Source: Candidatus Palauibacter sp. (GTDB lineage Bacteria > Gemmatimonadota > Gemmatimonadetes > Palauibacterales > Palauibacteraceae). From it: a stretch of 64,000 nt of DNA. The notes below the pieces were generated by a model. It was not told where the DNA came from, did no database searches, and worked only from the letters and a program-made list of their open reading frames with translations. This document shows positions 9,531 through 44,705 of this stretch, one piece after another; within the stretch, counting starts at the first letter, position 1; every line of letters begins with the position of its first letter. The translations under genes were made by a program, and so were the position numbers. Location of the stretch: positions 2,547,977 through 2,611,976 of the forward strand of contig NZ_OZ253465.1 in the NCBI RefSeq assembly GCF_965261555.1, read 5' to 3'.

Positions 9531-10562
9531 ATGTCGGCCGGCGAGATCTTATCGGACGTGGCAGGGGACGGCCACCGGAGAGCGAACCCCTTCGCGGGCG
9601 GCGGCCTCGACCGTGCCACGCACCTGAGGGCCGATCCCCGGTGGCTCTCCGCCCGGTTGTCCGATCCGGCCTCGCGCGTCGTCCCCGTGTGGCGCGAGCG
9701 CAGCCTGGTGGCTCGCGCGGCGGGAGAAGCCGGGACGGAAACCGACGACGCGGCCGACGGCACGGCCTATACGCCGGTACTCTTGCCGCCGGCCGCTCTC
9801 GCCTCCGACCTGGAACCACCTGAGGACTGGATCTTTCTCGGACTCGACGGGGGACAGGACGGGGGCCGCGCGGTGTTCGCCGCGGATGTGTCCGGAGAAG
9901 AGGATGTGTCAGGGGAAGAGGAGAGAGAGGAGCCACCGTCCGCTGTCACGCTCGACGGAGCGGGGGAGTTCCTCGATCTCCGCGGGGTGGGGGCCATGCT
10001 GGGGCAGCGCGACGGTTCGCTCCTGGCCTACGCCCGGGCGATCGTCACCTGGAGTCGCCGGCACCGCTTCTGCGGTACGTGCGGCTATCCGACCCGCCCC
10101 GAGCAGGGAGGGCACGTCCGGCGCTGCGACGACGAAGCCTGCGGGGCGGAGCATTTTCCGCGCACGGATCCGGCCATCATCGTCCTCGTGACCGATGGGG
10201 ACCGCTGCCTGCTGGGACGGAAGGACATCTGGCCGGAGGGCGTCTACTCCACGCTGGCGGGCTTCGTGGAGCCGGGCGAGAGCCTCTCCGAAGCCGTCGT
10301 CCGCGAGGTTCGGGAAGAGTCGGGGATCGAGGTCGGCTCCGTACGCTACCGTTCGTCGCAGCCCTGGCCCTTCCCGGCTTCATTGATGCTCGGGTTCCGG
10401 GCCGAACGTGTGGGCGGCGAGTTGAGCCTCGCGCGCCAGGAACTCGTCGATGCGCGCTGGTTCGACCGCGCCGATTTTGCTCGCCGCCGCGAAATCGGCC
10501 TCCGGCTTCCCGGCCGCGTGTCGATCTCGCGCCGCCTGATCGAGGACTGGCTCGCCGGGTAG
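9531..10562 (+). CDS. nudC: NAD+ diphosphatase NudC (Nudix hydrolase with zinc ribbon)
   Basis: Zinc ribbon CGTCGYPT...RRCDDEACGAEHFPRTDPAIIV plus the Nudix box GFVEPGESLSEAVVREVREESGI. Start ATG 9531 verified; the listed ORF has a 5' extension overlapping the HAD gene. Confidence 0.8.
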   Translation: MSAGEILSDVAGDGHRRANPFAGGGLDRATHLRADPRWLSARLSDPASRVVPVWRERSLVARAAGEAGTETDDAADGTAYTPVLLPPAALASDLEPPEDWIFLGLDGGQDGGRAVFAADVSGEEDVSGEEEREEPPSAVTLDGAGEFLDLRGVGAMLGQRDGSLLAYARAIVTWSRRHRFCGTCGYPTRPEQGGHVRRCDDEACGAEHFPRTDPAIIVLVTDGDRCLLGRKDIWPEGVYSTLAGFVEPGESLSEAVVREVREESGIEVGSVRYRSSQPWPFPASLMLGFRAERVGGELSLARQELVDARWFDRADFARRREIGLRLPGRVSISRRLIEDWLAG

Positions 10563-10574
10563 CGAGGAGGTCAG

Positions 10575-11846
10575 ATGCAACAGACCGCGCGATGTCTCAT
10601 CCTCTCGACCCTGACCCTCGCAGGGTTCGGGTGCCGGGACGCATCCCGGGAATCGGGCCGGCTCGACCCCGGGGCGGATTCCGCGATCAGTTCGACGGTC
10701 GATTCCGCGGGCGTGGAGATCGTCCACATCTCCGATCTGCAGGACCTCGACCTTCCGGAAATGAACAGGCGGTTGCTCTACTCCACCTCGGCGGACGTCG
10801 AGCTCCACCAGGTGGCGGGCGCGGTGTTCCTTCCGGATTCGTCGCTCGCGATCGCGAACGGCGGATCGTCTCAGATCCTCCTCCTCGACTCACAGGGGAA
10901 CGTTCTGGAGCGAAGAGGCCGCGAGGGAGAGGGACCCGGGGAGTATGTCGACATCGCCTGGATCGGGGTCGGCGCGGATGGCGTTCTCATCGTGTTCGAC
11001 GATCGCCTGCGGCGATTCACGTTCCTGGACGCGCAGGGAGGCGTGACCGGGGTGCAGCGCATCGAAGTGACCGAGGCTTTCGTCCCGTTGGCCGGCCTCC
11101 CGAGCGGAGAGTTCATCGCCGTGGTCGAGACGCGCCCCTTCCGCCCTACGGGGTTGCAGCGGGGCCCGCTGTTTCTGGTGGTCGTTGACCGGGCGGGTGC
11201 GGTCGCGGACACGCTGGGCCGGTGGGCCGGCAAGCAGCGCTACGTCACGCCCGACCGGATGATCGCATTCGGTTTCGCCGCCACCGCGCTCTATGCCGGA
11301 CGCGGTCCTCACGCCGCCCTGGCCACAACGGATTCGCTCGACATTACCCTGTACGAAGCATCGGCGCCGCTGACCCGGATCCGCGGCGGCCATTCCCCCC
11401 GCCAGGTCACCTCCCGGGAAGAGGAGGCGTGGACCGAACTCGTTCTCGACGTCTACCCGGAAGCGGTGCGTCCGGCTCAGCGCCGAACGCTGGAGCAGTC
11501 GACCGTCCGGGACACCTATCCCGCCGTCGGGGCGCTGAAGGTGGATGCCGCTGGCACGATATGGATCGGAGGCTACACGGGACTCGACGACGTCGAGCGG
11601 AACTGGACCGTCCTCCGACGCGACGGCACTCCTCTCGGTCGCCTCGGCCTTCCCGTTTATCGTCCCGAGTTGCTGAAGGTCAGGGAGAGCGGCATCACCG
11701 GCTGGGCCCTGGTCGAAATGGAAACGACCATTCCCAGCGCCAGCCACGAGCTGCTCGATGTGACCCCGGATCGCATCGCGGTCCTCCGCACGAGTGAACT
11801 GGGAGAAGAGTTCATCGAGGTGTACGCGATCGGGTTACCGCGGTAG
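10575..11846 (+). CDS. hypothetical lipoprotein (beta-propeller-like)
   Basis: Signal peptide with lipobox LTLAGFGC. No recognisable catalytic motifs. Confidence 0.55.
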   Translation: MQQTARCLILSTLTLAGFGCRDASRESGRLDPGADSAISSTVDSAGVEIVHISDLQDLDLPEMNRRLLYSTSADVELHQVAGAVFLPDSSLAIANGGSSQILLLDSQGNVLERRGREGEGPGEYVDIAWIGVGADGVLIVFDDRLRRFTFLDAQGGVTGVQRIEVTEAFVPLAGLPSGEFIAVVETRPFRPTGLQRGPLFLVVVDRAGAVADTLGRWAGKQRYVTPDRMIAFGFAATALYAGRGPHAALATTDSLDITLYEASAPLTRIRGGHSPRQVTSREEEAWTELVLDVYPEAVRPAQRRTLEQSTVRDTYPAVGALKVDAAGTIWIGGYTGLDDVERNWTVLRRDGTPLGRLGLPVYRPELLKVRESGITGWALVEMETTIPSASHELLDVTPDRIAVLRTSELGEEFIEVYAIGLPR

Positions 11847-35278: not shown

Positions 35279-37291
35279 ATGCCCCGACGACGGTTCGTTA
35301 CGCCCCGCGCTGCCCCGGCCACGCCGGTCCTCGGATGGCTGGCTCTCGGGGTGGCGCTCTCGGGGTGCGCCGGCGACGAGGCCGCCAACGATACTGACGA
35401 ACGCCTGCCTCCGGCGGCGGCGTATGCGGGTGACGACTGGCCTGTCTACGGCGGCGACCCGGGCGGCCTCAAGTATTCCTCCCTCACGGCGATCGACCGC
35501 TCGAACGTCGCCGAACTCGAGGCGGCTTGGGTCTGGGAGACGAGAGAAGAACCGATTCCCGATGCGGCGAGCCCCATCCAGGGCGAGCGCGTGGCGCCGG
35601 GGGCCTTCGAGGTGACGCCGATCGTCATCAACGACACGATGTGGCTCTCCACCCCCTACAGCCGCGTCGTCGCCCTGGACGCCGAGACGGGAGAGGAGTT
35701 CTGGAGCTACGATCCCAGGGCGTGGGAGTGGGGAAACCTCCACCGCGGCTGCCGCTTCTGTCACCGCGGAATCGCCCAGTGGAGCGAAGGAGGCGAGCGG
35801 CGGATCTTCCTGAACTCGCGCTGGCGGCTGATCGCGCTCGACGCCGCCACGGGCGAGCCGATCCAGAGCTTCGGGAACAGCGGAGAAGTAGATCTGACGG
35901 AGGGTCTCGCCTGGGACGCGAACCGGCTTCACATCTCCAACACCTCTCCCGCCGTCGTGTTCGAGGACATCGTGATCGTGGGCAGCGGCGTCCCGGACAA
36001 CCGGATCTACCGCAACAACCCTCCGGGCGACGTGCAGGCGTTCGACGCGCGCACCGGGGAGTTGCTCTGGACCTTCCACACCATCCCCAAGGAGGGGGAG
36101 TTCGGGGTCGAGACGTGGGAGGACGAGTCATGGTCCTACACCGGCTCGGCCAACGTGTGGGCGCCGTTCTCGCTGGACCCCGAGCGGGGGTTCCTTTACC
36201 TGCCCGTCTCCACGCCGAACAACGACTTCTATGGCGGCCACCGGCGGGGCCAGAACCTGTTCGCCGAGTCGCTCGTGTGCCTCGACGCGCGGACGGGCGA
36301 GCGCGTGTGGCACTTCCAGACCGTTCACCACGGGCTGTGGGACTACGACCTGCCCGCGCCGCCCGCGCTCGCGACGATCGAGGTCGGCGGGCGCGAGATC
36401 GACGCGGTCGTGGCGGTGGGAAAGACGGCGTTCACGTACGTGCTCGACCGAGTGACCGGCGAGCCCGTGTGGCCGGTCGAGGAGCGCGCGGTGCCGGAGA
36501 GCACGGTTCCCGGCGAGGTGCCGTGGCCGACCCAGCCGTTCCCGACGCGGCCCGCCCCGTTCTCCCGGCAGGGGATCACGGAAGACGACCTCATCGATTT
36601 CACGCCCGAACTGCGCGCGGAGGCGCTGGAGGTGTTCCGCCGCCACCGGACGGGGCCGATCTTCACGCCGCCCTCCGTCGAGGGGACGATCATGATGCCG
36701 GGCCTCATCGGCGGGGCGGGGTGGGGCGGCGCGGCCATCGATCCCGAGAGCGGCCACATGTTCGTGAAGGCGTATGACGATCCCTTCCTGGCCCGCGTCG
36801 CCGAGGCGGAGCCAGGGGAGGGGGACGCGGATTATCTCCCGAACTTCGCGAGCACGCTCTCGGTGGCTGGCGGGCTGCCGATCCTCAAGCCGCCCTACGG
36901 CACAATCACGGCGATCGATCTCAACACGGGCGACCACCTGTGGCAGCGTCCCTTCGGGGACGACTCGGCGATCCGGGAGCACCCGGCACTGGCGGGACTC
37001 GACCTCCCCCCGATGGGAGGCACGCCGCAGAGCCACGGGACGACATCCGGACCGCTGGCGACCGCGGGCGGGATCGTGTTCCTGGCGGGTGGAACTCCGT
37101 GGATCGAGGCGATGGATGTCCGCGACGGAACCACGCTGTGGCGAGGGGACCTGGCCGGGGGGCTGGGGCGCGGCAACCCGATGACCTACCGCACGCGATC
37201 CGGACGCCAGTTCGTCGTCGTCGCAACCTCCGCCGACGGACAGGTCGACTCGAAGCTGCAGGCCTTCGCCCTGCCGACGCCGGGGCGCTGA
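35279..37291 (+). CDS. PQQ-dependent dehydrogenase (quinoprotein glucose/alcohol dehydrogenase family), secreted lipoprotein
   Basis: Lipobox LALSGCAG; repeated W-motif propeller blades (DWPVYGGDPGGLKYSSLTAIDRSNVAELEAAWVWET...). Confidence 0.8.
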   Translation: MPRRRFVTPRAAPATPVLGWLALGVALSGCAGDEAANDTDERLPPAAAYAGDDWPVYGGDPGGLKYSSLTAIDRSNVAELEAAWVWETREEPIPDAASPIQGERVAPGAFEVTPIVINDTMWLSTPYSRVVALDAETGEEFWSYDPRAWEWGNLHRGCRFCHRGIAQWSEGGERRIFLNSRWRLIALDAATGEPIQSFGNSGEVDLTEGLAWDANRLHISNTSPAVVFEDIVIVGSGVPDNRIYRNNPPGDVQAFDARTGELLWTFHTIPKEGEFGVETWEDESWSYTGSANVWAPFSLDPERGFLYLPVSTPNNDFYGGHRRGQNLFAESLVCLDARTGERVWHFQTVHHGLWDYDLPAPPALATIEVGGREIDAVVAVGKTAFTYVLDRVTGEPVWPVEERAVPESTVPGEVPWPTQPFPTRPAPFSRQGITEDDLIDFTPELRAEALEVFRRHRTGPIFTPPSVEGTIMMPGLIGGAGWGGAAIDPESGHMFVKAYDDPFLARVAEAEPGEGDADYLPNFASTLSVAGGLPILKPPYGTITAIDLNTGDHLWQRPFGDDSAIREHPALAGLDLPPMGGTPQSHGTTSGPLATAGGIVFLAGGTPWIEAMDVRDGTTLWRGDLAGGLGRGNPMTYRTRSGRQFVVVATSADGQVDSKLQAFALPTPGR

Positions 37292-37404
37292 ACGGCCTCT
37301 TCGCCAACGTTCCCCCCGGCGCCGGCGGCCCCCGCTGGCAGCCGGCCGCATTACAGCTTGCCATCCCCCCTCGCGAGGTGCATCATCATCTGACGGTTCT
37401 AGTT

Positions 37405-37423
37405 GAGAATGATTCTCATTATC
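37405..37423. promoter_or_regulatory. Fur box (iron box)
   Basis: GAGAATGATTCTCATTATC matches the 19-bp consensus GATAATGATAATCATTATC at 16/19 positions. It lies in a locally AT-rich patch about 22 nt upstream of the CbiX-like gene start. A TTGACA hexamer follows at 37428..37433. Confidence 0.7.
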
Positions 37424-37444
37424 ATTATTGACAAGGTTGAGCCG

Positions 37445-38470
37445 ATGTTGAACGGATCACGGGTGCGCGCGCTGTTCGCCGCCCTTGGATTGCTCTGGAC
37501 GTTGAGCGGGTGTGCCTCCGCAGGGGGACCGCAGCCCGCCGTCGAACTCACCTCCCGCCTGGACCAGCCGGGACTTGCGCCGGAATCTGGACCCCGTCCC
37601 GGGATCCTCGTCATGGCGCACGGGGGTGGGGCGGAGTGGAACGGGCGGGTCGAGGACGCCCTGCGGCCGCTGCGCGACCGGATCCCCGTGTCGCTGGCGC
37701 TGGGGATGGCCGATCCCGGGACGATGCAGTCCGCCCTGGACTCGCTCGCGGAAGAGGGCGTGAACACGGTGGCCGTCGTGAGGCTGTTCGTGTCGGGAGC
37801 GTCGTTCCTGCATCCGACGGAGTTCCTGCTCGGCCTCCGTCCCGACGCCCCGGAGCGCGCGATGGTGGGGCACCGAATGGTGAGCGGGACGGAACTCGAT
37901 CCCCTCGCGAACGGCAGCCGGATCCTGCTGGTGCGGGAGGGACTGGGAGGGTCCGGCCAGGCGGCTCGCATCCTGGTCGACCGGGCCGCGACCGCCGGCA
38001 GACCCCCCGCCGAGAGCGGCGTGCTCCTCCTCGCGCACGGCATGGGGGATGATGGCGAGGACCGACGGGTGCTCGGCTCCATGGAGGATGCGGCCGAGGC
38101 CCTGCGGACCGGCGGCTACGCCGAAGTCCACGTCGGCACGCTCAGGGAAGACTGGGCCGGCGCACGGGAGGAGGCGGAGGAGCGGATCAAGGCGCTGGTC
38201 GCCGGCATGGGCGAACGTCACCGGCACGTCCTCGTGATCCCGTACCGCGTGTCCGGTTTCGGCCCCTACGCCGACGTGCTCGAAGGTCTCGAATACGTCG
38301 CCACCGAAGGATTCCTGCCCCATCCCCTGATCACCGATTGGATCGCGGAAAGGGCGACGGCGCGTTTCTGCGCCACCGGTATCGTCTCACCGCTCGGATC
38401 CTGTTCCGCCTCCGCGGGTGGGCGCGCGCCGTCGCGCCCCTGCGGACAGCCTCGAAACCTCGCCCGCTAA
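37445..38470 (+). CDS. CbiX-type (class II) chelatase-fold lipoprotein, duplicated CbiX domain
   Basis: Lipobox LLWTLSGCAS. Two halves each with the CbiX signature (ILVMAHGGGAEWN...; VLLLAHGMGDDGEDRRV...). The listed ORF start 37403 is the Fur box translated. Confidence 0.6.
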   Translation: MLNGSRVRALFAALGLLWTLSGCASAGGPQPAVELTSRLDQPGLAPESGPRPGILVMAHGGGAEWNGRVEDALRPLRDRIPVSLALGMADPGTMQSALDSLAEEGVNTVAVVRLFVSGASFLHPTEFLLGLRPDAPERAMVGHRMVSGTELDPLANGSRILLVREGLGGSGQAARILVDRAATAGRPPAESGVLLLAHGMGDDGEDRRVLGSMEDAAEALRTGGYAEVHVGTLREDWAGAREEAEERIKALVAGMGERHRHVLVIPYRVSGFGPYADVLEGLEYVATEGFLPHPLITDWIAERATARFCATGIVSPLGSCSASAGGRAPSRPCGQPRNLAR

Positions 38471-38494
38471 CTCTCGACACGGAGACCCGATTAC

Positions 38495-39568
38495 ATGACC
38501 GGAAGCACTCCTCTCTCGGCGCGGATCCCCTTCCGCGCACTGACGATTCCAATCGTGCTCGCGGCCTTTGCGGCGTGCGAGTCGGAAGTCGCCGCCCCCG
38601 AAGAGACGTTCGAGGAAGGCGTGATCACGGTCGACGCCACTTCGCCCGTCTCCTTCGCCTATGTGAGTCTGACCGGCGGCGGGGCGCTCCGGAGCCCGGC
38701 GGCTCCGGGCGGTTCCACGTCGTGGGACATGGCCTTCCGCAGGTTTTCCGTGCGGCTGAACGGCGGCGTCGCGGGCCCCGGCTCCGTATCCGCCGTCAGT
38801 CTGGGGAACAACGCGGGTCTGACGGCGGATCAGGTCACGGCGCTGACTCCGCAAGATGGCGAAGCGGCGTTCGCGGCGGTCACCGCTGCCGATATTCCGG
38901 CGGCGGGATTCGTCGAGGATGCGCTGGCGCCGGAGACGGGGCCGTCGTGGTTCCGCTTCGACCCCCAGGCGGGCACGATCGTGGCGAACCCCGGCGCGGC
39001 CTGGAAGCTGCGCGAGGGTTCGGGCCGCGGGTACGGCGTGATTCGCATGGTGGAGATCGCGATGCAGGGCGAGAGGCCCGTGGGCGCGACGATCCAGTTC
39101 CGGCGTCACGACCCGGGTGGCAGTCTCGGCGCGCCGGAAACGCTCGCGCTCGACCTCACGCGCGGACCGGTCTTCGTGAGCCTGTCGAACGGGATCGTGC
39201 GCGACCCCGCCGCTTGCGGCTGGGACGTCGCGACATCGCCCGAATTCACGATACAGGTGAACGAGGCCTGCGGCGCGGGAACCTTCCCGCTCGATGCAAC
39301 GGACGACTTCACGGCCCTGGCCCGTGCGGACGACGCGCCGGACTATGCCGGCTTCCTCTCGACGATCGCCGGCGCGTTTCCGGCCACGGTGGGAGATGCG
39401 CGGGGCGCGTTCTGGTATAGTATCCGGCAGAACAATCGAATGTGGCCGACCTACAACGTTTTCCTCGTCCGCGTGGGCGCGGAGGTCTACAAGGTGCAGC
39501 TCTTCGACTACTACAATGCGACCGGTGACTCGGGCCATCCGTCGGTGAGGTTCCAGCGGCTCCGGTGA
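38495..39568 (+). CDS. HmuY-like lipoprotein (tentative heme-binding protein)
   Basis: Lipobox LAAFAACES. Sits between the chelatase-like gene and a TonB-dependent receptor, with start/stop overlap to the receptor. Family assignment is from context and loose similarity only. Confidence 0.4.
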   Translation: MTGSTPLSARIPFRALTIPIVLAAFAACESEVAAPEETFEEGVITVDATSPVSFAYVSLTGGGALRSPAAPGGSTSWDMAFRRFSVRLNGGVAGPGSVSAVSLGNNAGLTADQVTALTPQDGEAAFAAVTAADIPAAGFVEDALAPETGPSWFRFDPQAGTIVANPGAAWKLREGSGRGYGVIRMVEIAMQGERPVGATIQFRRHDPGGSLGAPETLALDLTRGPVFVSLSNGIVRDPAACGWDVATSPEFTIQVNEACGAGTFPLDATDDFTALARADDAPDYAGFLSTIAGAFPATVGDARGAFWYSIRQNNRMWPTYNVFLVRVGAEVYKVQLFDYYNATGDSGHPSVRFQRLR

Positions 39569-41763
39569 CCGCCGCGCTCGCGCGGCTGGCGCTCTGCGCC
39601 ACCCTCGTGCTGGGTGGCATCCTCCTTCCGGCTGCGGCAGAGGCCCGGATACAGGCCCAAACGCAGGGCCAGGCACAGGGTCGGGTCTACGACGTGGCGT
39701 CGGGGGCGGGGATCGCGGACGCCGAGGTGACGTGGCTCCCGGCTCCCGGCGCCTCAGAGTCGGTGGCTGCGGCACAACGCGGGATCTCGGTGCGCACCAA
39801 CGCCGCCGGCGTCCTTGCGCCGGATGAGAATTGGGGGCCCGGCGGAGGCATTGAGGTGTCGGCGCTCGGATATCTCTCCCGAAGGCTGGCCTGGACGGAG
39901 GCCACGGCGGCGGGCTGGCGGATCGGGCTCGAACGGGACCCGCTGGCCCTCGACGAGATCGTGGTTACGGCGAGTTCACTCCCGCGCCTCCGCTCGCAGA
40001 TCGCCGTGCCGATGGAGACGGTGGAGGCCGAGGAGATCGACGCGGCCGGCGTCGCTTCCGCCGACGGGCTGCTTGCGGAGCTTCCCGGCGTCCAGGTGAC
40101 GGCCGCCACCCCAGTCGGCTCGAATCTCATGATCCGGGGCATTGGCGGCGCGCGCGTCCTCGTCCTGCTCGACGGCCAGCCGAGCGCGGGGGCGCTGCTC
40201 GAGAACCGCGACCTGAGCCGCATGTCACTGGCGGGCGTGGAGCGCGTCGAGATCGTGAAGGGCCCCCTTTCGTCCCTCTACGGCTCCGACGCTCTGGGCG
40301 GCGTCGTGAACGTCATCACCCAGCTTCCCGCCTCGGGGTTCCAGGTCGACGCGCGCGCCGTGTCAGGCGGCGCCGGACGTCGCGAGGCGGAGGCGACGGC
40401 AAGCGGCGGAGGCCGTCTCCGGTACCGGATCACGGGCGGCTGGCGCCAGGAAGACCGGATCCCGGGGCTCGCCGACGGGGGGCCGAGCGCGTTCGCCCGC
40501 GTCTGGGACTTCCGGTCCCGCTTTCAGTTCAAGGCGTCGGACGCCTGGGACATCCTCGCCACCGCCACCTACCTCCGCGAGCGGCAGCGCTGGCCGGTGG
40601 GCGGTGCGTTCTCCGGGTTCAACGACAACGCGGGATTCTCGGGATCGGTGGAGGCGCGACGACCGCTCGGTCCCGGAGCGTGGAGCGGAAGTCTCTTCCT
40701 TCAGGAATACGAGCACCTGTTCCGCAGCGCCCGTGGAGATGCTCCCATCGCCGATGGGGGTGCCGACACCCAGTGGGAACGCCTCGCGAAGGGTGCCGCG
40801 GGGTATTCCGCCGTCCTGGGCGGACATTCCGTCGATGTCGGCCTCGAGGTCGCGAGCCGCGCGATCCGGTCGCCCGACAAGCTGATCGAGGAGCGCGCGG
40901 CCGACCGGCAGCTCGCGCTCTTCGCGCAGGACGCGTGGCGCCTCGGGGGGACCGTCGTGAGCGGTGGCGCCCGCCTCACCTGGAACGACCGCTGGGGCTC
41001 CAACCTCTCCCCGACCGTGGGTGTGACTCGTCGCGCCGGGGAGCACGTGCACCTCCGCGCGGCGGTGGCCCGCGGCTTCCGGGCCCCCTCCTTCAAGGAG
41101 CTGGCCTGGAACTTCGTCAACGTGGGGGGCGGCTATGTCCTCCAGGGGTTCCCGGATCTGGACCCGGAGCGTTCGTGGAACGTCTCCGGCGGGGTGGAAT
41201 GGCAACCGGCGTCGACACTTCGGATGGAAGTCGAGGCCTTCTCCAACCGGATTCGGAACCTCATTGAGCCCGGGTTCGTCGGTAATGCCGAGAGCGGTCT
41301 CCTCATCTTCTCCCCCCGGAACGTCGCGGACGCGATCACGCGCGGGTTCGAGTTCAGCCTCCGCGCCGTCCTGGATCGCGCGGAGTTCACCGCAGGCTAC
41401 GCCTACCTCGACGCCTACGCGGTCGACTCCGGGCTTCCGCTGGACCGACGCGCCGCACATTCAGCGCGCGCCCGGGCGGCGTGGACCGCCGAGGCCCTCT
41501 CCGGGCTTCGGCTGGATGCCACGGCACACCTCACTGGCGCCGCGCCGATCATCGGAACCGGCCCCGACGGGAGCGACGCGAGGATCGGCACGCAGGAGCG
41601 GTTCGTGGCCATCGACCTGCAGACCTCCGTCGATCTCGGGCGAAGGCTCAAGCTCGTGGCGGGCGTCGACAACCTGTTCGATGCTCGTCCGGCGGGTTGG
41701 CAGGGGGCGATAGAACGGAAGCTGCGGATGGGGCTGGCCGTCGAGGAGCTGTTTGCACGCTGA
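39565..41763 (+). CDS. TonB-dependent outer-membrane receptor
   Basis: 732 aa: signal peptide, plug (DEIVVTASSLPRLRSQ...IRGIGGARVLVLLDGQP), beta-barrel repeats. Confidence 0.75.
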   Translation: MTAALARLALCATLVLGGILLPAAAEARIQAQTQGQAQGRVYDVASGAGIADAEVTWLPAPGASESVAAAQRGISVRTNAAGVLAPDENWGPGGGIEVSALGYLSRRLAWTEATAAGWRIGLERDPLALDEIVVTASSLPRLRSQIAVPMETVEAEEIDAAGVASADGLLAELPGVQVTAATPVGSNLMIRGIGGARVLVLLDGQPSAGALLENRDLSRMSLAGVERVEIVKGPLSSLYGSDALGGVVNVITQLPASGFQVDARAVSGGAGRREAEATASGGGRLRYRITGGWRQEDRIPGLADGGPSAFARVWDFRSRFQFKASDAWDILATATYLRERQRWPVGGAFSGFNDNAGFSGSVEARRPLGPGAWSGSLFLQEYEHLFRSARGDAPIADGGADTQWERLAKGAAGYSAVLGGHSVDVGLEVASRAIRSPDKLIEERAADRQLALFAQDAWRLGGTVVSGGARLTWNDRWGSNLSPTVGVTRRAGEHVHLRAAVARGFRAPSFKELAWNFVNVGGGYVLQGFPDLDPERSWNVSGGVEWQPASTLRMEVEAFSNRIRNLIEPGFVGNAESGLLIFSPRNVADAITRGFEFSLRAVLDRAEFTAGYAYLDAYAVDSGLPLDRRAAHSARARAAWTAEALSGLRLDATAHLTGAAPIIGTGPDGSDARIGTQERFVAIDLQTSVDLGRRLKLVAGVDNLFDARPAGWQGAIERKLRMGLAVEELFAR

Positions 41764-41782: not shown

Positions 41783-42955
41783 TCAGGCGCAGTAATCGGC
41801 CGCCGCCTCCGCGAGGATCTCGGCCAGCCTCGCGCACGATTCGAGGTCCACCCACTCCACGTCGGCGTGCGCGCCCTCGCCGTGCGGGCCGATCACGACG
41901 CTGTCGACCCCCGCGGCCTGAGTCAGCGCGGAGTCCATCCACGGAGAGTCTCCGATGACCTCCGGTGCGCTGCCCAGAACGCTGCGGGCGGCGCGCGATA
42001 CGCAGGCCGCGACCGGCGCCTCCGGTGTCGTTTCGAAGGGTTCGCGGTGAAAGAAGGTCGACCAGGCGACCTCGAGGGACGGGTCCTCGGCGCGCAGGTC
42101 GTCGATGATGGCCGCGATCTCGGCTTCCACGGACTCCCGCGTCTCGGGCGGCACGGTGCGCCGCTCGACCCGAAGCGTGCAGCGCGGAGAGTAGGTGCTG
42201 ATCCCGCTCCCCCCCTCGAGCAGCGGCGCGTGCATCGAGGGGGGGCCGAGGAGGGGGTGCCCCGGCCGGGACTGGAGTTCTTCGATGAACGCCTCCAATC
42301 GCTGCAGGACGCGTCCCATGCGCACGTTCGCATCGATGCCCTCCCGGAAGCGGCTGCCGTGGGCGGCCCGCCCGTGCGTCGTGATCTCGATCCACGTGAA
42401 TCCGCGGTGGGCCACGCACAGATCCAGCGACGTGGGCTCGGTGACGATCGCGGCGTCGAAAGCGAGTTCACCGCGCGCGCGCCGTTCGAGCAGGTCCGCG
42501 GTGCCCAGGCTCGCGTATTCCTCGTCGGCCACGGCGGCCACAAGGACATCGCCGCCCAGGCGGGTGCCCGATTCGCGGAGGAGTCGGGCGGCCTCGATGC
42601 AGGCGGCCAGCGCCCCCTTCATGTCGTAGGCCCCCCGTCCGTAGAGCCGCCCGTCCCGCATGCTCGGCGAAAACGGCGCCTTCATGCCCTCCACGCCGAC
42701 CGTGTCGTAGTGGGCGTTCAGCATCAGGGCCGGCCCGCCCCCCGCGCCCGCGAGCCGCCCGACGACGCTCGGCCGCCCCGCCTCGGGCTCGTACCGCGTC
42801 ACTTCGAGACCCGCCTCGCGCATGTGCCGCGTCGTGAGGCGCGCGATCTCCGTCTCGCCGGGCGCCCCCTCCACCAGCGTGGGGTTCACGGAGTTCGTAG
42901 CGACGAGATCCGTGAGGACGGTGGTGAGGCGCAGCGGGTCGGCGGAGAACGTCAA
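41783..42955 (-). CDS. M20-family peptidase (ArgE/DapE-like)
   Basis: M20 motifs LNAHYDTV, GRGAYDMKG, ADEEYASLG. The proposed TTG start at 42955 overlaps the stop of the upstream small-protein gene (TTGA); the listed ORF has a long R-rich false extension. Confidence 0.7.
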   Translation of the reverse strand: MTFSADPLRLTTVLTDLVATNSVNPTLVEGAPGETEIARLTTRHMREAGLEVTRYEPEAGRPSVVGRLAGAGGGPALMLNAHYDTVGVEGMKAPFSPSMRDGRLYGRGAYDMKGALAACIEAARLLRESGTRLGGDVLVAAVADEEYASLGTADLLERRARGELAFDAAIVTEPTSLDLCVAHRGFTWIEITTHGRAAHGSRFREGIDANVRMGRVLQRLEAFIEELQSRPGHPLLGPPSMHAPLLEGGSGISTYSPRCTLRVERRTVPPETRESVEAEIAAIIDDLRAEDPSLEVAWSTFFHREPFETTPEAPVAACVSRAARSVLGSAPEVIGDSPWMDSALTQAAGVDSVVIGPHGEGAHADVEWVDLESCARLAEILAEAAADYCA

Positions 42956-43236
42956 GGGCTCGGGAGGCGCTTGATCTCCCTTCGGCCGGCCGCCACGCCG
43001 GTCCCGATCCCGATCCCGAACAGGATGGCCGTGAGGGGAGTAACGAATGGAAGGACCGCAGCCAGCAGTCCGACGCCCCAGCCCGCGACCCCGGCCACGA
43101 GCGGAACCCCGCGCCGGTGAACGCCGTCCACGAAGCGCAGTCGACCGCGCACGAACCTCTTCATCGTCACGTAGCCGCCGACCGAAGCGAAGCCCGCGAT
43201 GGCGAGCCAGAGAAAATTCCCGATGAACTCGAACAT
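42952..43236 (-). CDS. small membrane protein (2 TM)
   Basis: 94 aa; two hydrophobic helices; stop coupled to the downstream M20 start. Confidence 0.5.
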   Translation of the reverse strand: MFEFIGNFLWLAIAGFASVGGYVTMKRFVRGRLRFVDGVHRRGVPLVAGVAGWGVGLLAAVLPFVTPLTAILFGIGIGTGVAAGRREIKRLPSP

Positions 43237-43368
43237 GTCGCACCTCCCGCACAGCCTGTACGCCCTCCATCCCGGGGCGGTTTCAGGGGTCCGGCAGCCG
43301 GTTTGCGACGGGCTGCCGGCCGTGTTGTACTATGTTGCCGAAGTCCGAACCCAGCCACGGAGATCGAG

Positions 43369-43804: not shown

Positions 43805-44629
43805 TTATTCGAAGGGATCGGGAAGGTCCCCGGCCCAGTCCAGGAAGCCCGCGCCGCTCGGCGTCCACACGACGATCGCGCCGCAGGTCGAGCCCGTGCG
43901 CATAAATTCCATGGGCGTCTCGACTTCACGCTTGTAGACCTCGACCGCGCCCAGATCGTCCCTCGGGAGATCGTCGAACTGCATCCCCGCCTGGTACATC
44001 CCGTCCAGGTAGAGCGCCGGCGGACAGTTGAGCCGCGCGCCCTCGCCGAGGAAGACTGGCGCGATCCCGTATTCGATCCGGCCCACGGAGACGTTCGGCA
44101 GGCCGCGCAGGAGATCGCTGGGGAGGCGCGGGTTGCGGTTGATGATGTCCCGCGGCGTGAAGAAGGTCCCGAATCCCCGTCCCATGCGTTCGAGGAAGCC
44201 TTCCACGTTCCGCTGGCGGCGGGTCTGCCGGATCTCCACGGTGAGATCCGCGATGCGAATGACGGTACTCGAAAGGGTCAGCGTGACGCGCGTCGTCTGG
44301 TCCGGCTCGAGGTCGATGTGCGTATAGCCGGCCTCATAGCCGATGAACCGCACCTCGATCGAGTCCCTGCCGGCCCAGGTCTGCGGGACCCGGAAGTTGC
44401 CTTCGACATCGGTGATCGCCCCGTATCCGGAGCCCATGAGAATCACGCGGGCCCCTTCGATCGGAAGCCCTGTCGAGGCGCTGACCACCTGCCCGATCAG
44501 TTCCGCCGTCTGCCGCTCCGTCTCCTCCTGCGCCGCGGCCGCGCTCGGCGAACCCGCCAGCACGCCTCCGGCGACCAGGGTCAGCGCCGCCAAACGGGCG
44601 CCTCTGCTTCCCGATTCCAACGCACTCAT
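43805..44629 (-). CDS. carboxypeptidase-regulatory-like plus plug-like domain protein (paralog of 32596..33684)
   Basis: Signal peptide, a CarbopepD_reg-like block (IGQVVSASTGLPIEGARVILMGSGYGAITDVEGNFRV) and a plug-like block (TFFTPRDIINRNPRLPSDLLRGLPNV). Confidence 0.55.
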   Translation of the reverse strand: MSALESGSRGARLAALTLVAGGVLAGSPSAAAAQEETERQTAELIGQVVSASTGLPIEGARVILMGSGYGAITDVEGNFRVPQTWAGRDSIEVRFIGYEAGYTHIDLEPDQTTRVTLTLSSTVIRIADLTVEIRQTRRQRNVEGFLERMGRGFGTFFTPRDIINRNPRLPSDLLRGLPNVSVGRIEYGIAPVFLGEGARLNCPPALYLDGMYQAGMQFDDLPRDDLGAVEVYKREVETPMEFMRTGSTCGAIVVWTPSGAGFLDWAGDLPDPFE

Positions 44630-44705
44630 ACCGCCCCCTGCTCGAGTCCGGCCCTCTCCGTGACGCTTTCCATCATCCACCTTCCATCACCGGGAAGATA
44701 AGGTC

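Follow-up and report, generated by a model that had tools for sequence, protein, structure and literature searches.

A Fur-box-associated operon of Candidatus Palauibacter encoding an exported chelatase-fold lipoprotein, an HmuY-family lipoprotein and a TonB-dependent receptor: a probable haem acquisition locus

Introduction

What is taken up by an operon that places an exported chelatase-like protein ahead of an HmuY-like lipoprotein and a TonB-dependent receptor, and which signal controls it? This question is raised by three tightly linked plus-strand genes, here named g1, g2 and g3, all located downstream of a Fur-like box in a marine Gemmatimonadota bacterium of the Candidatus Palauibacter type; the 64-kb stretch of DNA that was analysed is referred to as the window. 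The original prediction had described a Fur-controlled uptake operon for haem or metalloporphyrin, in which g1 would act in a dechelatase-like manner rather than in cobalt insertion. Following operator scans, profile and structure comparisons and an examination of homologous loci, we consider it probable (roughly 0.6) that the locus is an iron-repressed acquisition operon for haem, or a closely related tetrapyrrole, of Candidatus Palauibacter-type Gemmatimonadota. As such, it looks like a variant on haem-scavenging systems that have been described before, and not like an enzyme of vitamin B12 or sirohaem synthesis.

Results and discussion

Gene organization and operator

The features of the locus are the following:

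37358..37386, plus strand: weak sigma-70-like promoter candidate, TTGCCA-17-CATCAT, 9/12 consensus positions
37371..37460: AT-rich regulatory patch, GC at or below 0.45 in 60-nt windows
37404..37418: core operator, putative Fur-family box TGAGAATGATTCTCA, perfect 7-1-7 inverted repeat with zero mismatches
37405..37423: match GAGAATGATTCTCATTATC to the 19-bp Fur consensus (E. coli, GATAATGATAATCATTATC)
37410..37424: 7-1-7 element TGATTCTCATTATCA, the second of the site, overlapping the core and shifted from it by 6 bp
37445..38470, plus strand: g1, 341-aa lipoprotein, predicted to be exported, in which two domains make up a CbiX/SirB-like class II chelatase fold, ATG start
38495..39568, plus strand: g2, HmuY-family lipoprotein (PF14064), long form, 357 aa
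39565..41763, plus strand: g3, TonB-dependent receptor of 732 aa with Plug and barrel domains

Genes g1 and g2 are separated by 24 nt, and the g2 stop and g3 start share four nucleotides (GTGA, 39565..39568), an overlap also present in L001, L201, L203, L207, L208, L210 and L211. The mechanical ORF of g1 starts at TTG 37403, one base 5' of the palindrome, and reads MRMILIIIIDKVEPM, whereas homologues such as P0011 start at the position equivalent to ATG 37445, which lies 26 nt beyond the end of the core palindrome. A GC scan of the 64 kb in 60-nt windows (window mean 0.695) identified 37371..37460 as the sole stretch at or below 0.45, with a minimum of 0.35. Within it, GAGAATGATTCTCATTATC agrees with GATAATGATAATCATTATC at 16/19 positions on the plus strand (3 mismatches) and at 17/19 on the minus strand (2 mismatches); consensus matches were obtained in 0/100 dinucleotide-preserving shuffles, and neither a further Fur consensus site nor a second copy of the 7-1-7 core was found across the window. 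The linked genes with their overlap, the near-consensus box in the only AT-rich patch of a GC-rich region and the mis-started g1 reading frame had all been anticipated, and the coordinates and scans agree with each of them.

The second element, TGATTCTCATTATCA, agrees with TGATAATnATTATCA at 12 of 14 specified positions, and the TCA periodicity downstream of the core is partly kept at +16 to +20 in aligned loci of g1 homologues; by analogy with the Baichoo-Helmann model, the overlapping 7-1-7 elements would form a two-dimer site. The candidate promoter is not conserved in the other g1-homologue loci, and for this reason it is no more than a candidate. A scan of 15 ORFs of the 64-kb window revealed no Fur gene. 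A Fur-family protein is the probable ligand of the palindrome.

Operator conservation and haem loci in other genomes

Of 80 loci with g1 homologues, 53 carry the box 5' of the gene, where chance would give about 0.2. The 52 unique sites yield the consensus ctagtTGAGAaTGATTCTCAwTntCa, and the flanking bases, unlike the box, are not conserved; as judged from these alignments, the box is a phylogenetic footprint. Gene order g1-g2-g3 is found in 28/80 loci, five of which lack a recognisable box. Rhodothermales carry the variant TTTAGAYTNARTCTAAA ahead of g1 and again ahead of a separate receptor-HmuY operon; it also lies 5' of g1 in two Bacteroidetes-labelled metagenome-assembled loci (L074 and L075) and 5' of a receptor-HmuY-g1 cluster (L072). 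This variant is nearly identical to the Fur box of Riemerella, ATTTAGAATTATTCTAAAT: in EMSA, purified Fur bound promoter fragments carrying the latter, and hmuY-hmuR of that organism is under Fur control (PMC5609570).

Within Gemmatimonadota, the cultured Gaopeijia maritima (L201) and a relative carry g2-g3 orthologues divergent from a Peripla_BP_2-FecCD-ABC_tran-HemS/ChuX cluster, and the shared intergenic region contains the box with one mismatch, the only box in 13 kb. The receptor of this locus is 53% identical to g3 over the full length, and the g2 orthologue shows 55% identity over the alignment and 58% in the best local BLASTP segment. In L206, the box precedes g2-g3 beside hemA, ferrochelatase, an amino-oxidase-family gene and a Chlor_dismutase-family (HemQ/ChdC-type) gene, and in L207 it lies 5' of a PepSY_TM gene. 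Elsewhere, transporters of the MFS or HmuTUV type occur alongside g2-g3. Because the operator is conserved, its variant resembles the Riemerella Fur box and the same box stands at the Gaopeijia haem importer, the iron and haem assignment of the operon is well supported. The comparison of orthologous loci called for by the original prediction therefore backed its iron-regulated, haem-related reading.

The same box may mark a different metal. The exact 15-mer was also found 5' of ZnuA-like lipoprotein genes (L097, with a His-rich loop, L126, L130 and L197), and therefore the sequence alone does not specify iron; it likewise precedes genes for two proteins judged COG0523-like from sequence alone (L163 and L192). 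These ZnuA-like and possible COG0523-like loci lie on high-GC metagenome contigs of other lineages. Among the known members of Zur regulons are receptor genes and chelatase-like genes. A regulon for zinc, cobalt, nickel or manganese, governed by Zur or another Fur paralogue, could thus be envisaged, with g1 as a periplasmic metal-binder or metallochaperone and g2-g3 importing a metal or metallophore, and the many conserved His, Glu and Asp residues of g1 and its solitary occurrence in many genomes would agree with this. We consider it improbable, given that the Gemmatimonadota box stands at HmuTUV-HemS, near haem-biosynthesis genes and 5' of the PepSY_TM gene, that the sister-phylum variant is nearly identical to an EMSA-tested Fur box (PMC5609570), that the ZnuD model gives g3 only 36 bits, compared with about 135-145 for the haem and B12 models, and that no znu-type gene was found in the window or the 80 loci.

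The receptor and its substrate

The identification of the third gene as a TonB-dependent receptor was confirmed by its Plug (PF07715, 81 bits) and barrel (PF00593, 139 bits) domains, and a TonB-box-like DEIVVTA lies at residues 130-136. All NCBIfam substrate subfamilies scored g3 under their cut-offs, including haemin (TIGR01785, 135 bits against 316.85) and B12 (TIGR01779, 144.8 against 599.7). A His between the FRAP and PDL motifs is a hallmark of haem receptors, and the g3 sequence contains none; only the context of its orthologue points to haem as the probable substrate.

The profile results bear on whether the operon could instead scavenge cobalamin or other corrinoids for a B12-auxotrophic symbiont, with a BtuB-type g3, g2 as surface corrinoid binder and g1 as a CbiX-derived corrinoid or cobalt handler. 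The B12 profile is the only NCBIfam model matching g3 in a single full-length stretch, CbiX enzymes are cobaltochelatases, and Palauibacterales reportedly have no B12 biosynthesis and import the vitamin (PMC10469786). Even so, this reading appears very improbable: the B12 score is far under its cut-off, no cobalamin riboswitch was detected even at E <= 1, the operon lies behind an operator of Fur type, and orthologues of g2-g3 are found in haem loci. Moreover, the surface B12 binders known from Bacteroides are members of other families (BtuH is a DUF4465 protein), and HmuY is unmentioned in that literature.

The HmuY-family lipoprotein

The 357-aa middle protein had been described as HmuY-like, and this holds for family and fold. 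It matches PF14064 with 45.1 bits (cut-off 27), a domain carried by all 120 listed g2 homologues; Cys28 of its lipobox (FAAC) is invariant, as is Glu29. The Foldseek comparison with HmuY structures that had been proposed returned HmuY 3h8t as the best match (E 2.5e-8), followed by BfrB, Tfo and BVU_2192; matches with E <= 0.001 were exclusively HmuY-family structures, with TM to target of 0.57-0.63 for a model of moderate pLDDT (68). The resemblance does not extend to the haem-ligand region, as sequence similarity to HmuY is limited to residues 42-102 and 322-354 and a family-specific insert of ~200 residues replaces that region. Haem axial ligands are His134/His166 in P. gingivalis HmuY and Met pairs in some homologues. 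Since no invariant or near-invariant His was found among 26 diverse members of the g2 family and the ligand region is replaced, haem binding by g2 is putative; Tyr or Met may provide the ligation.

The exported chelatase-fold lipoprotein

The g1 product was correctly predicted to be a duplicated CbiX-domain protein located outside the cytoplasm. It consists of two alpha/beta domains separated by a cleft, and the sheet of either domain has four parallel strands, which corresponds to the class II chelatase fold; SirB is the best structural match, with periplasmic binding proteins ranking lower. The lipobox (LSGC, Cys23) is conserved in homologues, and the family retains a signal peptide, with or without lipobox, and a C-terminal Cys pair. 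At the sequence level the relationship is distant: g1 falls under the gathering cut-off of Pfam CbiX (PF01903, 14.8 bits against 22), as do its homologues in L072 (19.9 bits) and L011 (18.1 bits), and a precomputed PF01903 match exists for 17 of 120 listed homologues. A profile alignment with a weak E-value (0.18) pairs the invariant H59 (MAHGG) with the LLAHGSS His of CbiX 3lyh, the invariant H198 (AHGM) is the equivalent residue of the second domain, and, in a profile alignment only, the near-invariant H123 (RLFVSGASFLH) lies three residues past the CfbA His of the LFLxxGxH motif. At 90% identity the family falls into at least 848 clusters, and a species-representative genome set has at least 271 places that encode relatives.

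Further arrangements in which g1 independently accompanies HmuY and receptor genes were found in L072, L011/L014/L015 and L058. In addition, g1 and its box form a single-gene unit in many genomes devoid of g2-g3 and stand alone among unrelated neighbours in most of the more distant loci. Some Palauibacter genomes (L005, L007, L009 and L063) have kept g1 and lost g2-g3, and therefore g1 is neither simply an accessory of this receptor nor dependent on it.

Database entries for homologues read 'hypothetical' or, for P0011, P0026 and P0120, 'sirohydrochlorin chelatase', names which, if the present reading is right, can mislead reconstructions of B12 or sirohaem pathways in metagenome-assembled genomes. 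Taken literally, the latter name, together with the SirB match, would make g1 an ordinary cytoplasmic enzyme of sirohaem or B12 biosynthesis placed incidentally beside g2-g3. There is next to no likelihood of this, in view of the conserved signal peptide and Cys pair, the score under the CbiX threshold, the conserved Fur-type operator 5' of g1, its repeated linkage with receptor and HmuY genes, and the reported lack of a B12 pathway in Palauibacterales (PMC10469786). For related reasons, namely its export, the absence of a riboswitch and the reported lack of B12 biosynthesis, a role in cobalt insertion is unlikely, as the original prediction had argued.

With regard to the chemistry of g1, it may bind, de-metallate or re-metallate the imported tetrapyrrole. 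[quoted passage not shown] We regard such a shuttle as rather unlikely, as H59 and H198 are invariant across the family, which suggests metal chemistry, and no transporter gene was linked to g1 in the loci examined. The dechelatase-like role proposed for g1 was nonetheless not supported: it derives from fold and context, and the analogue FetB showed no reverse chelatase activity with haemin in vitro. We offer only as a tentative and somewhat doubtful proposal that g1 and its relatives are a class of exported enzymes, not recognised before, which use a class II chelatase fold to take the iron out of haem, or to exchange its metal, within the periplasm. They would be small proteins that have converged on the role of the class I de-chelatase HmuS, and they would belong to the core of the Fur regulon in Gemmatimonadota and in neighbouring phyla. 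If true, bacteria with g1 could use haem iron with neither a haem importer nor a haem oxygenase.

Proposed mechanism and implications

Under the preferred reading of an iron-repressed haem operon, a Fur-family repressor would occupy TGAGAATGATTCTCA just 5' of g1 when iron is plentiful, and g1, g2 and g3 would be transcribed together when it is scarce. The g2 product, probably exposed at the surface, would capture the tetrapyrrole and g3 would carry it into the periplasm, where g1, with its CbiX-type His retained, would receive it and either hold it or remove or exchange its metal. The ligand (presumably haem), the topology of g1 and g2 and any catalytic activity of g1 are predicted in this scheme. 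The operon has no inner-membrane haem importer, and the window contains neither an ABC importer nor a cytoplasmic HemS; if g1 removes the metal, the freed iron would enter by general ferrous-iron transporters, which would explain this absence.

If this reading is right, the locus represents a compact system for extracting iron from haem outside the cytoplasm, and a family of exported chelatase-fold proteins is now identified. It would also define TGAGAATnATTCTCA as the Fur operator of Gemmatimonadota, a phylum that has been little studied, and TTTAGAnTnAnTCTAAA as that of Rhodothermales and Bacteroidota relatives, providing a handle on regulon reconstruction. The cultured Gaopeijia maritima and the small soluble domains make the system testable.

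Comparison with known systems

Haem uptake loci that encode chelatase-like proteins (HmuS, FetB/IhtB) have been described before, as has Fur control of hmuYR, and the present operon is not categorically new. It shares with the canonical haem locus of Gaopeijia maritima (receptor, HmuTUV/ShuTUV and HemS/ChuS) the outer-membrane pair and the operator; it differs in that the ABC importer and HemS are missing and g1 sits 5' of g2 instead, which suggests that the tetrapyrrole, once imported, is handled differently. As in hmuYRSTUV of Bacteroidota, a gene for an HmuY-family lipoprotein lies directly 5' of the receptor gene, the operon also includes a gene for a member of the chelatase superfamily, and, in Riemerella, hmuYR is under Fur via a near-identical operator (PMC5609570). 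In hmuYRSTUV, HmuS is a haem de-chelatase and the released iron enters via FeoB (PMC12583661). HmuS is a 163-kDa, NADH-dependent membrane protein of class I (CobN-like), whereas g1 is a 35-kDa lipoprotein of class II fold with no evident supply of reductant; furthermore, g2 is ~170 residues longer than HmuY and has no conserved His ligands, and the chelatase-like gene comes first in the window operon. CbiKP, the periplasmic CbiK of Desulfovibrio vulgaris, belongs to the CbiK family and not to the CbiX/SirB-like group, and has no HmuY/receptor partner of the kind described here. The closest studied analogue of g1 is FetB/IhtB of the P. gingivalis Iht system (IhtA-IhtB), a CbiK-like haem-binding lipoprotein adjoining the receptor IhtA (PMC12094164), which inserted Co and Mn into a porphyrin and showed no reverse chelatase activity on haemin in vitro (PMC13065792).

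Results

Organization of the locus

The G+C content of the window is 69.5%, and the nearest relative is a Candidatus Palauibacter chromosome (Gemmatimonadota) whose g1, g2 and g3 proteins are 92-97% identical to those encoded here. The three genes, for a putatively chelatase-fold exported lipoprotein (g1), a long HmuY-family lipoprotein (g2) and a TonB-dependent receptor (g3), and the features around them are as follows:

Features of the locus (window positions)
35279..37291, + strand, PQQ-dependent dehydrogenase gene, 5' flank of g1-g2-g3
37404..37418, core operator TGAGAATGATTCTCA, perfect 7-1-7 inverted repeat
37405..37423, match to the E. coli Fur consensus, GAGAATGATTCTCATTATC
37445..38470, + strand, g1
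38495..39568, + strand, g2
39565..41763, + strand, g3
41783..43270, - strand, convergent M20 peptidase gene, 3' flank of g1-g2-g3

The tight linkage and the start/stop overlap of the last two genes described in the original prediction were both found, with 24 nt between g1 and g2 and a 4-nt overlap (GTGA) between g2 and g3, and no terminator-like sites above chance expectation were detected between the three genes. Within the window, no inner-membrane transporter was found near them, and no Fur gene among the scanned ORFs.

The last 24 codons of an FG-GAP/VCBS-repeat gene persist at 37264..37335 (67% identical, in a different frame from the dehydrogenase gene). A gene of this type, of ~390 aa, lies between the PQQ dehydrogenase gene and g1 in three close relatives (L001-L003; 5734..6894 in L001) and is absent from the window, and the remnant points to a deletion just 5' of the operator. 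A seeming second g1 copy in the upstream region of L001-L003 proved to be this FG-GAP repeat protein and was discarded as a clustering artefact. Further downstream, 43805..44680 (- strand) encodes a 291-aa protein consisting of a signal sequence, a CarboxypepD_reg domain and a region without family match; the protein is similar to the extension at the N-terminus of g3-like receptors, and neither plug nor barrel was detected in it.

A conserved palindromic operator precedes g1

A scan of the 64 kb identified the 90 nt at 37371..37460 as the sole place where a 60-nt window falls to a G+C of 45% or less, in agreement with the earlier claim that a near-consensus Fur box occupies the only AT-rich patch of the region. 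Compared with the E. coli Fur consensus, the box itself agrees at 16/19 positions when read on one strand and at 17/19 on the opposite strand, and none of 100 shuffles gave a match. The true operator unit is the 7-1-7 palindrome, which is overlapped at a 6-bp offset by a second element, TGATTCTCATTATCA; overlapping offset elements are reportedly the arrangement proposed by Baichoo and Helmann for classical Fur boxes. The mechanically called g1 ORF starts at TTG 37403, one base 5' of the palindrome, and in the homologues the start codon corresponds to ATG 37445; the remark that g1 had been mis-started in the box was therefore correct. Upstream of g1, the only promoter candidate was a weak, non-conserved sigma-70-like match, and the assignment was dropped. 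No cobalamin riboswitch or other Rfam element was found; corrinoid scavenging, another possible role for the locus, ranks below the iron/haem reading.

Conservation of the box was assessed in 80 loci encoding g1 relatives, taken from species-representative genomes, allowing up to 3 mismatches to the palindrome. The box lies just 5' of the g1 homologue in 53/80 loci; about 10 such sites occur elsewhere in 1.08 Mb, so that ~0.2 would be expected by chance in the regions examined. The 15 core positions are near-invariant and the flanks carry almost no information (consensus ctagtTGAGAaTGATTCTCAwTntCa). The operator is thus a phylogenetic footprint, spanning g1 proteins down to ~43% identity. One locus binned as Gammaproteobacteria (L029, VXMG01000014.1) carries the full g1-g2-g3 set at 52-65% identity with a Gemmatimonadota-type box, TGAGACTGATTCTCA, and is likely a mis-binned Gemmatimonadota contig or a horizontal transfer.

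Iron or zinc as the regulatory metal

The operator sequence alone does not specify the metal. An exact 15-mer scan of metagenome contigs returned 120 contigs from many phyla, in which the site precedes iron genes (FTR1 permeases, receptors, a PepSY protein, FhuD-like genes) and, in other lineages, ZnuA-like genes and two genes judged COG0523-like from sequence; with iron and zinc-type genes mixed, the metal could not be assigned by defining a regulon in this way. Searches for homologues of ZnuA, FTR1 and receptor probes in the 80 loci and the window gave nothing useful. Contigs of other high-GC bacteria (L188 3089..3103, L140, L198 and L164) carry this exact 15-mer in front of FTR1-type iron permease genes. 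For two of them, L188 and L164, the longest ORF opens in or beside the box and so acquires a spurious N-terminus (e.g., MMLRMILIF), as happened with the mis-started g1. L188, with its FTR1-cytochrome c arrangement, was dropped as a Gemmatimonadota example because the contig belongs to Myxococcales.

The Rhodothermales g1 homologues have a related palindrome, TTTAGAYTNARTCTAAA, in front of them; in L011, L014 and L015 it also stands before a separate receptor-HmuY operon a few kb away. Two MAG loci labelled Bacteroidetes (L074, L075) carry it ahead of g1, and an unclassified bacterium (L072) carries it ahead of a receptor-HmuY-g1 cluster. Over all, this lineage variant, TTTAGAYTNARTCTAAA(TAA), was seen before g1 homologues in L010-L016, L056, L072, L074 and L075 (e.g., L011 6855 and 10406). 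The Fur box of Riemerella anatipestifer is ATTTAGAATTATTCTAAAT; promoter fragments containing it are bound by purified Fur in gel shifts, and hmuY-hmuR is under Fur control in this organism (PMC5609570). The Rhodothermales palindrome differs from it by 1-2 bases per half-site, and the Gemmatimonadota box by one base per half-site (TTGAGAAT vs TTTAGAAT).

Furthermore, the cultured Gemmatimonadota species Gaopeijia maritima (L201) encodes orthologues of g2 (55% aligned identity, 58% in the best local BLASTP segment) and g3 (53% full-length) with the same 4-nt overlap, divergent from a haem importer unit (Peripla_BP_2, FecCD, ABC_tran, HemS/ChuX), and the sole box in 13 kb (1 mismatch) lies in the intergenic region common to both units; a second genome shows the same divergent arrangement. 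In another Gemmatimonadota contig (L206; 2392..6049 and 10268..11113), two boxes precede the g2-g3 pair, whose neighbours are hemA/GluTR, ferrochelatase, an amino-oxidase-family gene and a Chlor_dismutase-family (HemQ/ChdC-type) gene, a set that we take to fit the coproporphyrin-dependent route; this layout hints at haem uptake coordinated with synthesis. The box also precedes a PepSY_TM gene 3' of another g2-g3 pair. Taken together, the sister-phylum box, the Gaopeijia locus and the boxes at haem-biosynthesis and PepSY_TM genes settle the metal question reasonably well for Gemmatimonadota, and we therefore treat the site as a Fur operator, a predicted binding that we regard as very likely. 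A zinc or other-metal regulon, to which the ZnuA-like and COG0523-like genes of other lineages would point, is less probable than the iron/haem reading.

Features of the encoded proteins

No Pfam or NCBIfam family was reached above threshold by g1: CbiX scored 14.8 bits (cut-off 22), and PDB sequence searches reached no better than E 0.18-0.8 to CbiX and CfbA. With these searches all below threshold, identification from sequence was abandoned, and the predicted fold is settled by structure prediction alone. The histidine after strand 1 is conserved in both halves (H59 in MAHGG, H198 in AHGM), H59 aligning with the AHGS histidine of CbiX 3lyh; H123, a candidate second histidine, is conserved, as are H143, H293, an invariant TLREDW motif and a C-terminal Cys pair. 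Residues ~130-160 (37832..37924) form an insertion with a beta-hairpin and the near-invariant H143, which the profile alignment places where the nickel chelatase CfbA has its His-rich loop.

Nearly all full-length g1 members carry a signal peptide and most a lipobox, the Rhodothermales members having a signal peptide without the lipobox Cys; on these features g1 is predicted to be extracytoplasmic, as originally proposed. The family comprises at least 848 clusters (90% identity, E <= 0.001), and the genome set has genes for relatives at 271 or more sites. Members occur in Gemmatimonadota-, Rhodothermales-, Bacteroidetes- and Acidobacteriota-labelled MAGs and in one MAG labelled Gammaproteobacteria. 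Some sources name members "sirohydrochlorin chelatase", in line with which g1 would be a mis-localised biosynthetic chelatase; given the export of these proteins and the reported absence of B12 synthesis from Palauibacterales (PMC10469786), the name is probably a misnomer, and this explanation ranks below iron/haem.

The HmuY-like nature predicted for g2 held for family and fold: the protein passes the HmuY model (45.1 bits vs 27), the domain is present in all homologues listed, and its predicted structure, of moderate quality (pLDDT 68), gave significant E-values to HmuY-family structures only. The haem ligands did not follow. The 357-aa protein is ~170 residues longer than HmuY and alignable to it only at the N- and C-terminal strands (residues 42-102 and 322-354), and no invariant histidine exists in the g2 family; thus the haem coordination by two histidines known from P. 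gingivalis HmuY is not conserved, and the ligand of g2 is assigned from context only. BtuH, a Bacteroides B12 binder, was considered as an HmuY-like protein and rejected, since it is a DUF4465 protein. Following the lipidated Cys, g2 shows the acidic stretch C-E-[SD]-[ED], with Cys and Glu invariant (38576..38590, residues 28-32), which presumably recalls the Bacteroidota lipoprotein surface-export signal and is a lead only; g1 has no such stretch. Plug and barrel domains and a TonB-box-like DEIVVTA are present in g3, which reached no curated substrate subfamily cut-off.

Modularity of the gene cluster

The order g1-g2-g3 occurs in 28/80 loci, all from closer relatives, many of them sponge- or coral-associated MAGs. 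Other arrangements are receptor-HmuY-g1-receptor (L072), g1 followed by two unrelated genes and then receptor-HmuY under the same operator (three Rhodothermales loci), and receptor-membrane protein-g1 (L058). In L058 (3800..7837), the receptor gene and a gene for a 241-aa multi-pass membrane protein without Pfam match lie directly 5' of the box and g1; this protein could be an unrecognised inner-membrane partner. In the majority of the more distant Gemmatimonadota, g1 and its box form a single-gene unit, and no common neighbour emerged, the adjacent genes being unrelated (dehydrogenases, peptidases, polyphosphate kinase, isocitrate dehydrogenase and others).

Some Palauibacter genomes have lost g2-g3: only fragments of both, fused behind g1, remain in Ca. 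Palauibacter poriticola (L005, 8015..8550), and none in L007, L009 and L063, where g1 is directly followed by the M20 peptidase gene; L008 (7001..7964) has a frameshifted g1 and no g2-g3. Within the genus, the module has decayed. Conversely, g2-g3 without g1 are found beside HmuTUV-HemS, beside an MFS transporter, or alone. From gene order, g2-g3 would be a mobile outer-membrane pair with alternative downstream modules, and g1 a putative core iron-regulon gene, often but not always attached to it.

Discussion

The best-supported account is that haem, or a close relative, would be taken up through g2 and g3 under iron repression, and that the imported tetrapyrrole would then be handled by g1 in the periplasm; we assign this iron/haem operon model a probability of roughly 60%. 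We slightly favour the prediction that g1 has a tetrapyrrole as its ligand or substrate, whether it binds the molecule or alters its metal. Removal of iron by g1 is one option, and it would neatly explain the missing importer, g1 sitting where the importer and HemS sit in Gaopeijia; a parallel activity is described for HmuS (PMC12583661) and has long been proposed for IhtB (PMC12094164). Against it, in vitro assays of FetB, the one exported class II chelatase from such a locus to have been tested, showed insertion of Co and Mn into a porphyrin and no removal of the metal from haemin (PMC13065792), and a reductant is not evident in the periplasm. A dechelatase role specifically is doubtful, and binding without catalysis deserves to be taken just as seriously.

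Under the iron/haem model, g1 represents a structurally assignable protein family of uncharacterised function, widespread, mis-annotated and experimentally tractable, which bears on extracytoplasmic iron release from haem, and the operator is newly delineated for the phylum. Regarding known systems, the locus would work like hmuYR with a chelatase-superfamily partner, and like ihtAB. Since g1 is neither CobN-like, as HmuS-type proteins are, nor of the CbiK family, as IhtB-type proteins are, g2 does not show the ligands expected of HmuY proper and g3 stays below the subfamily cut-offs, the locus is a member of neither.
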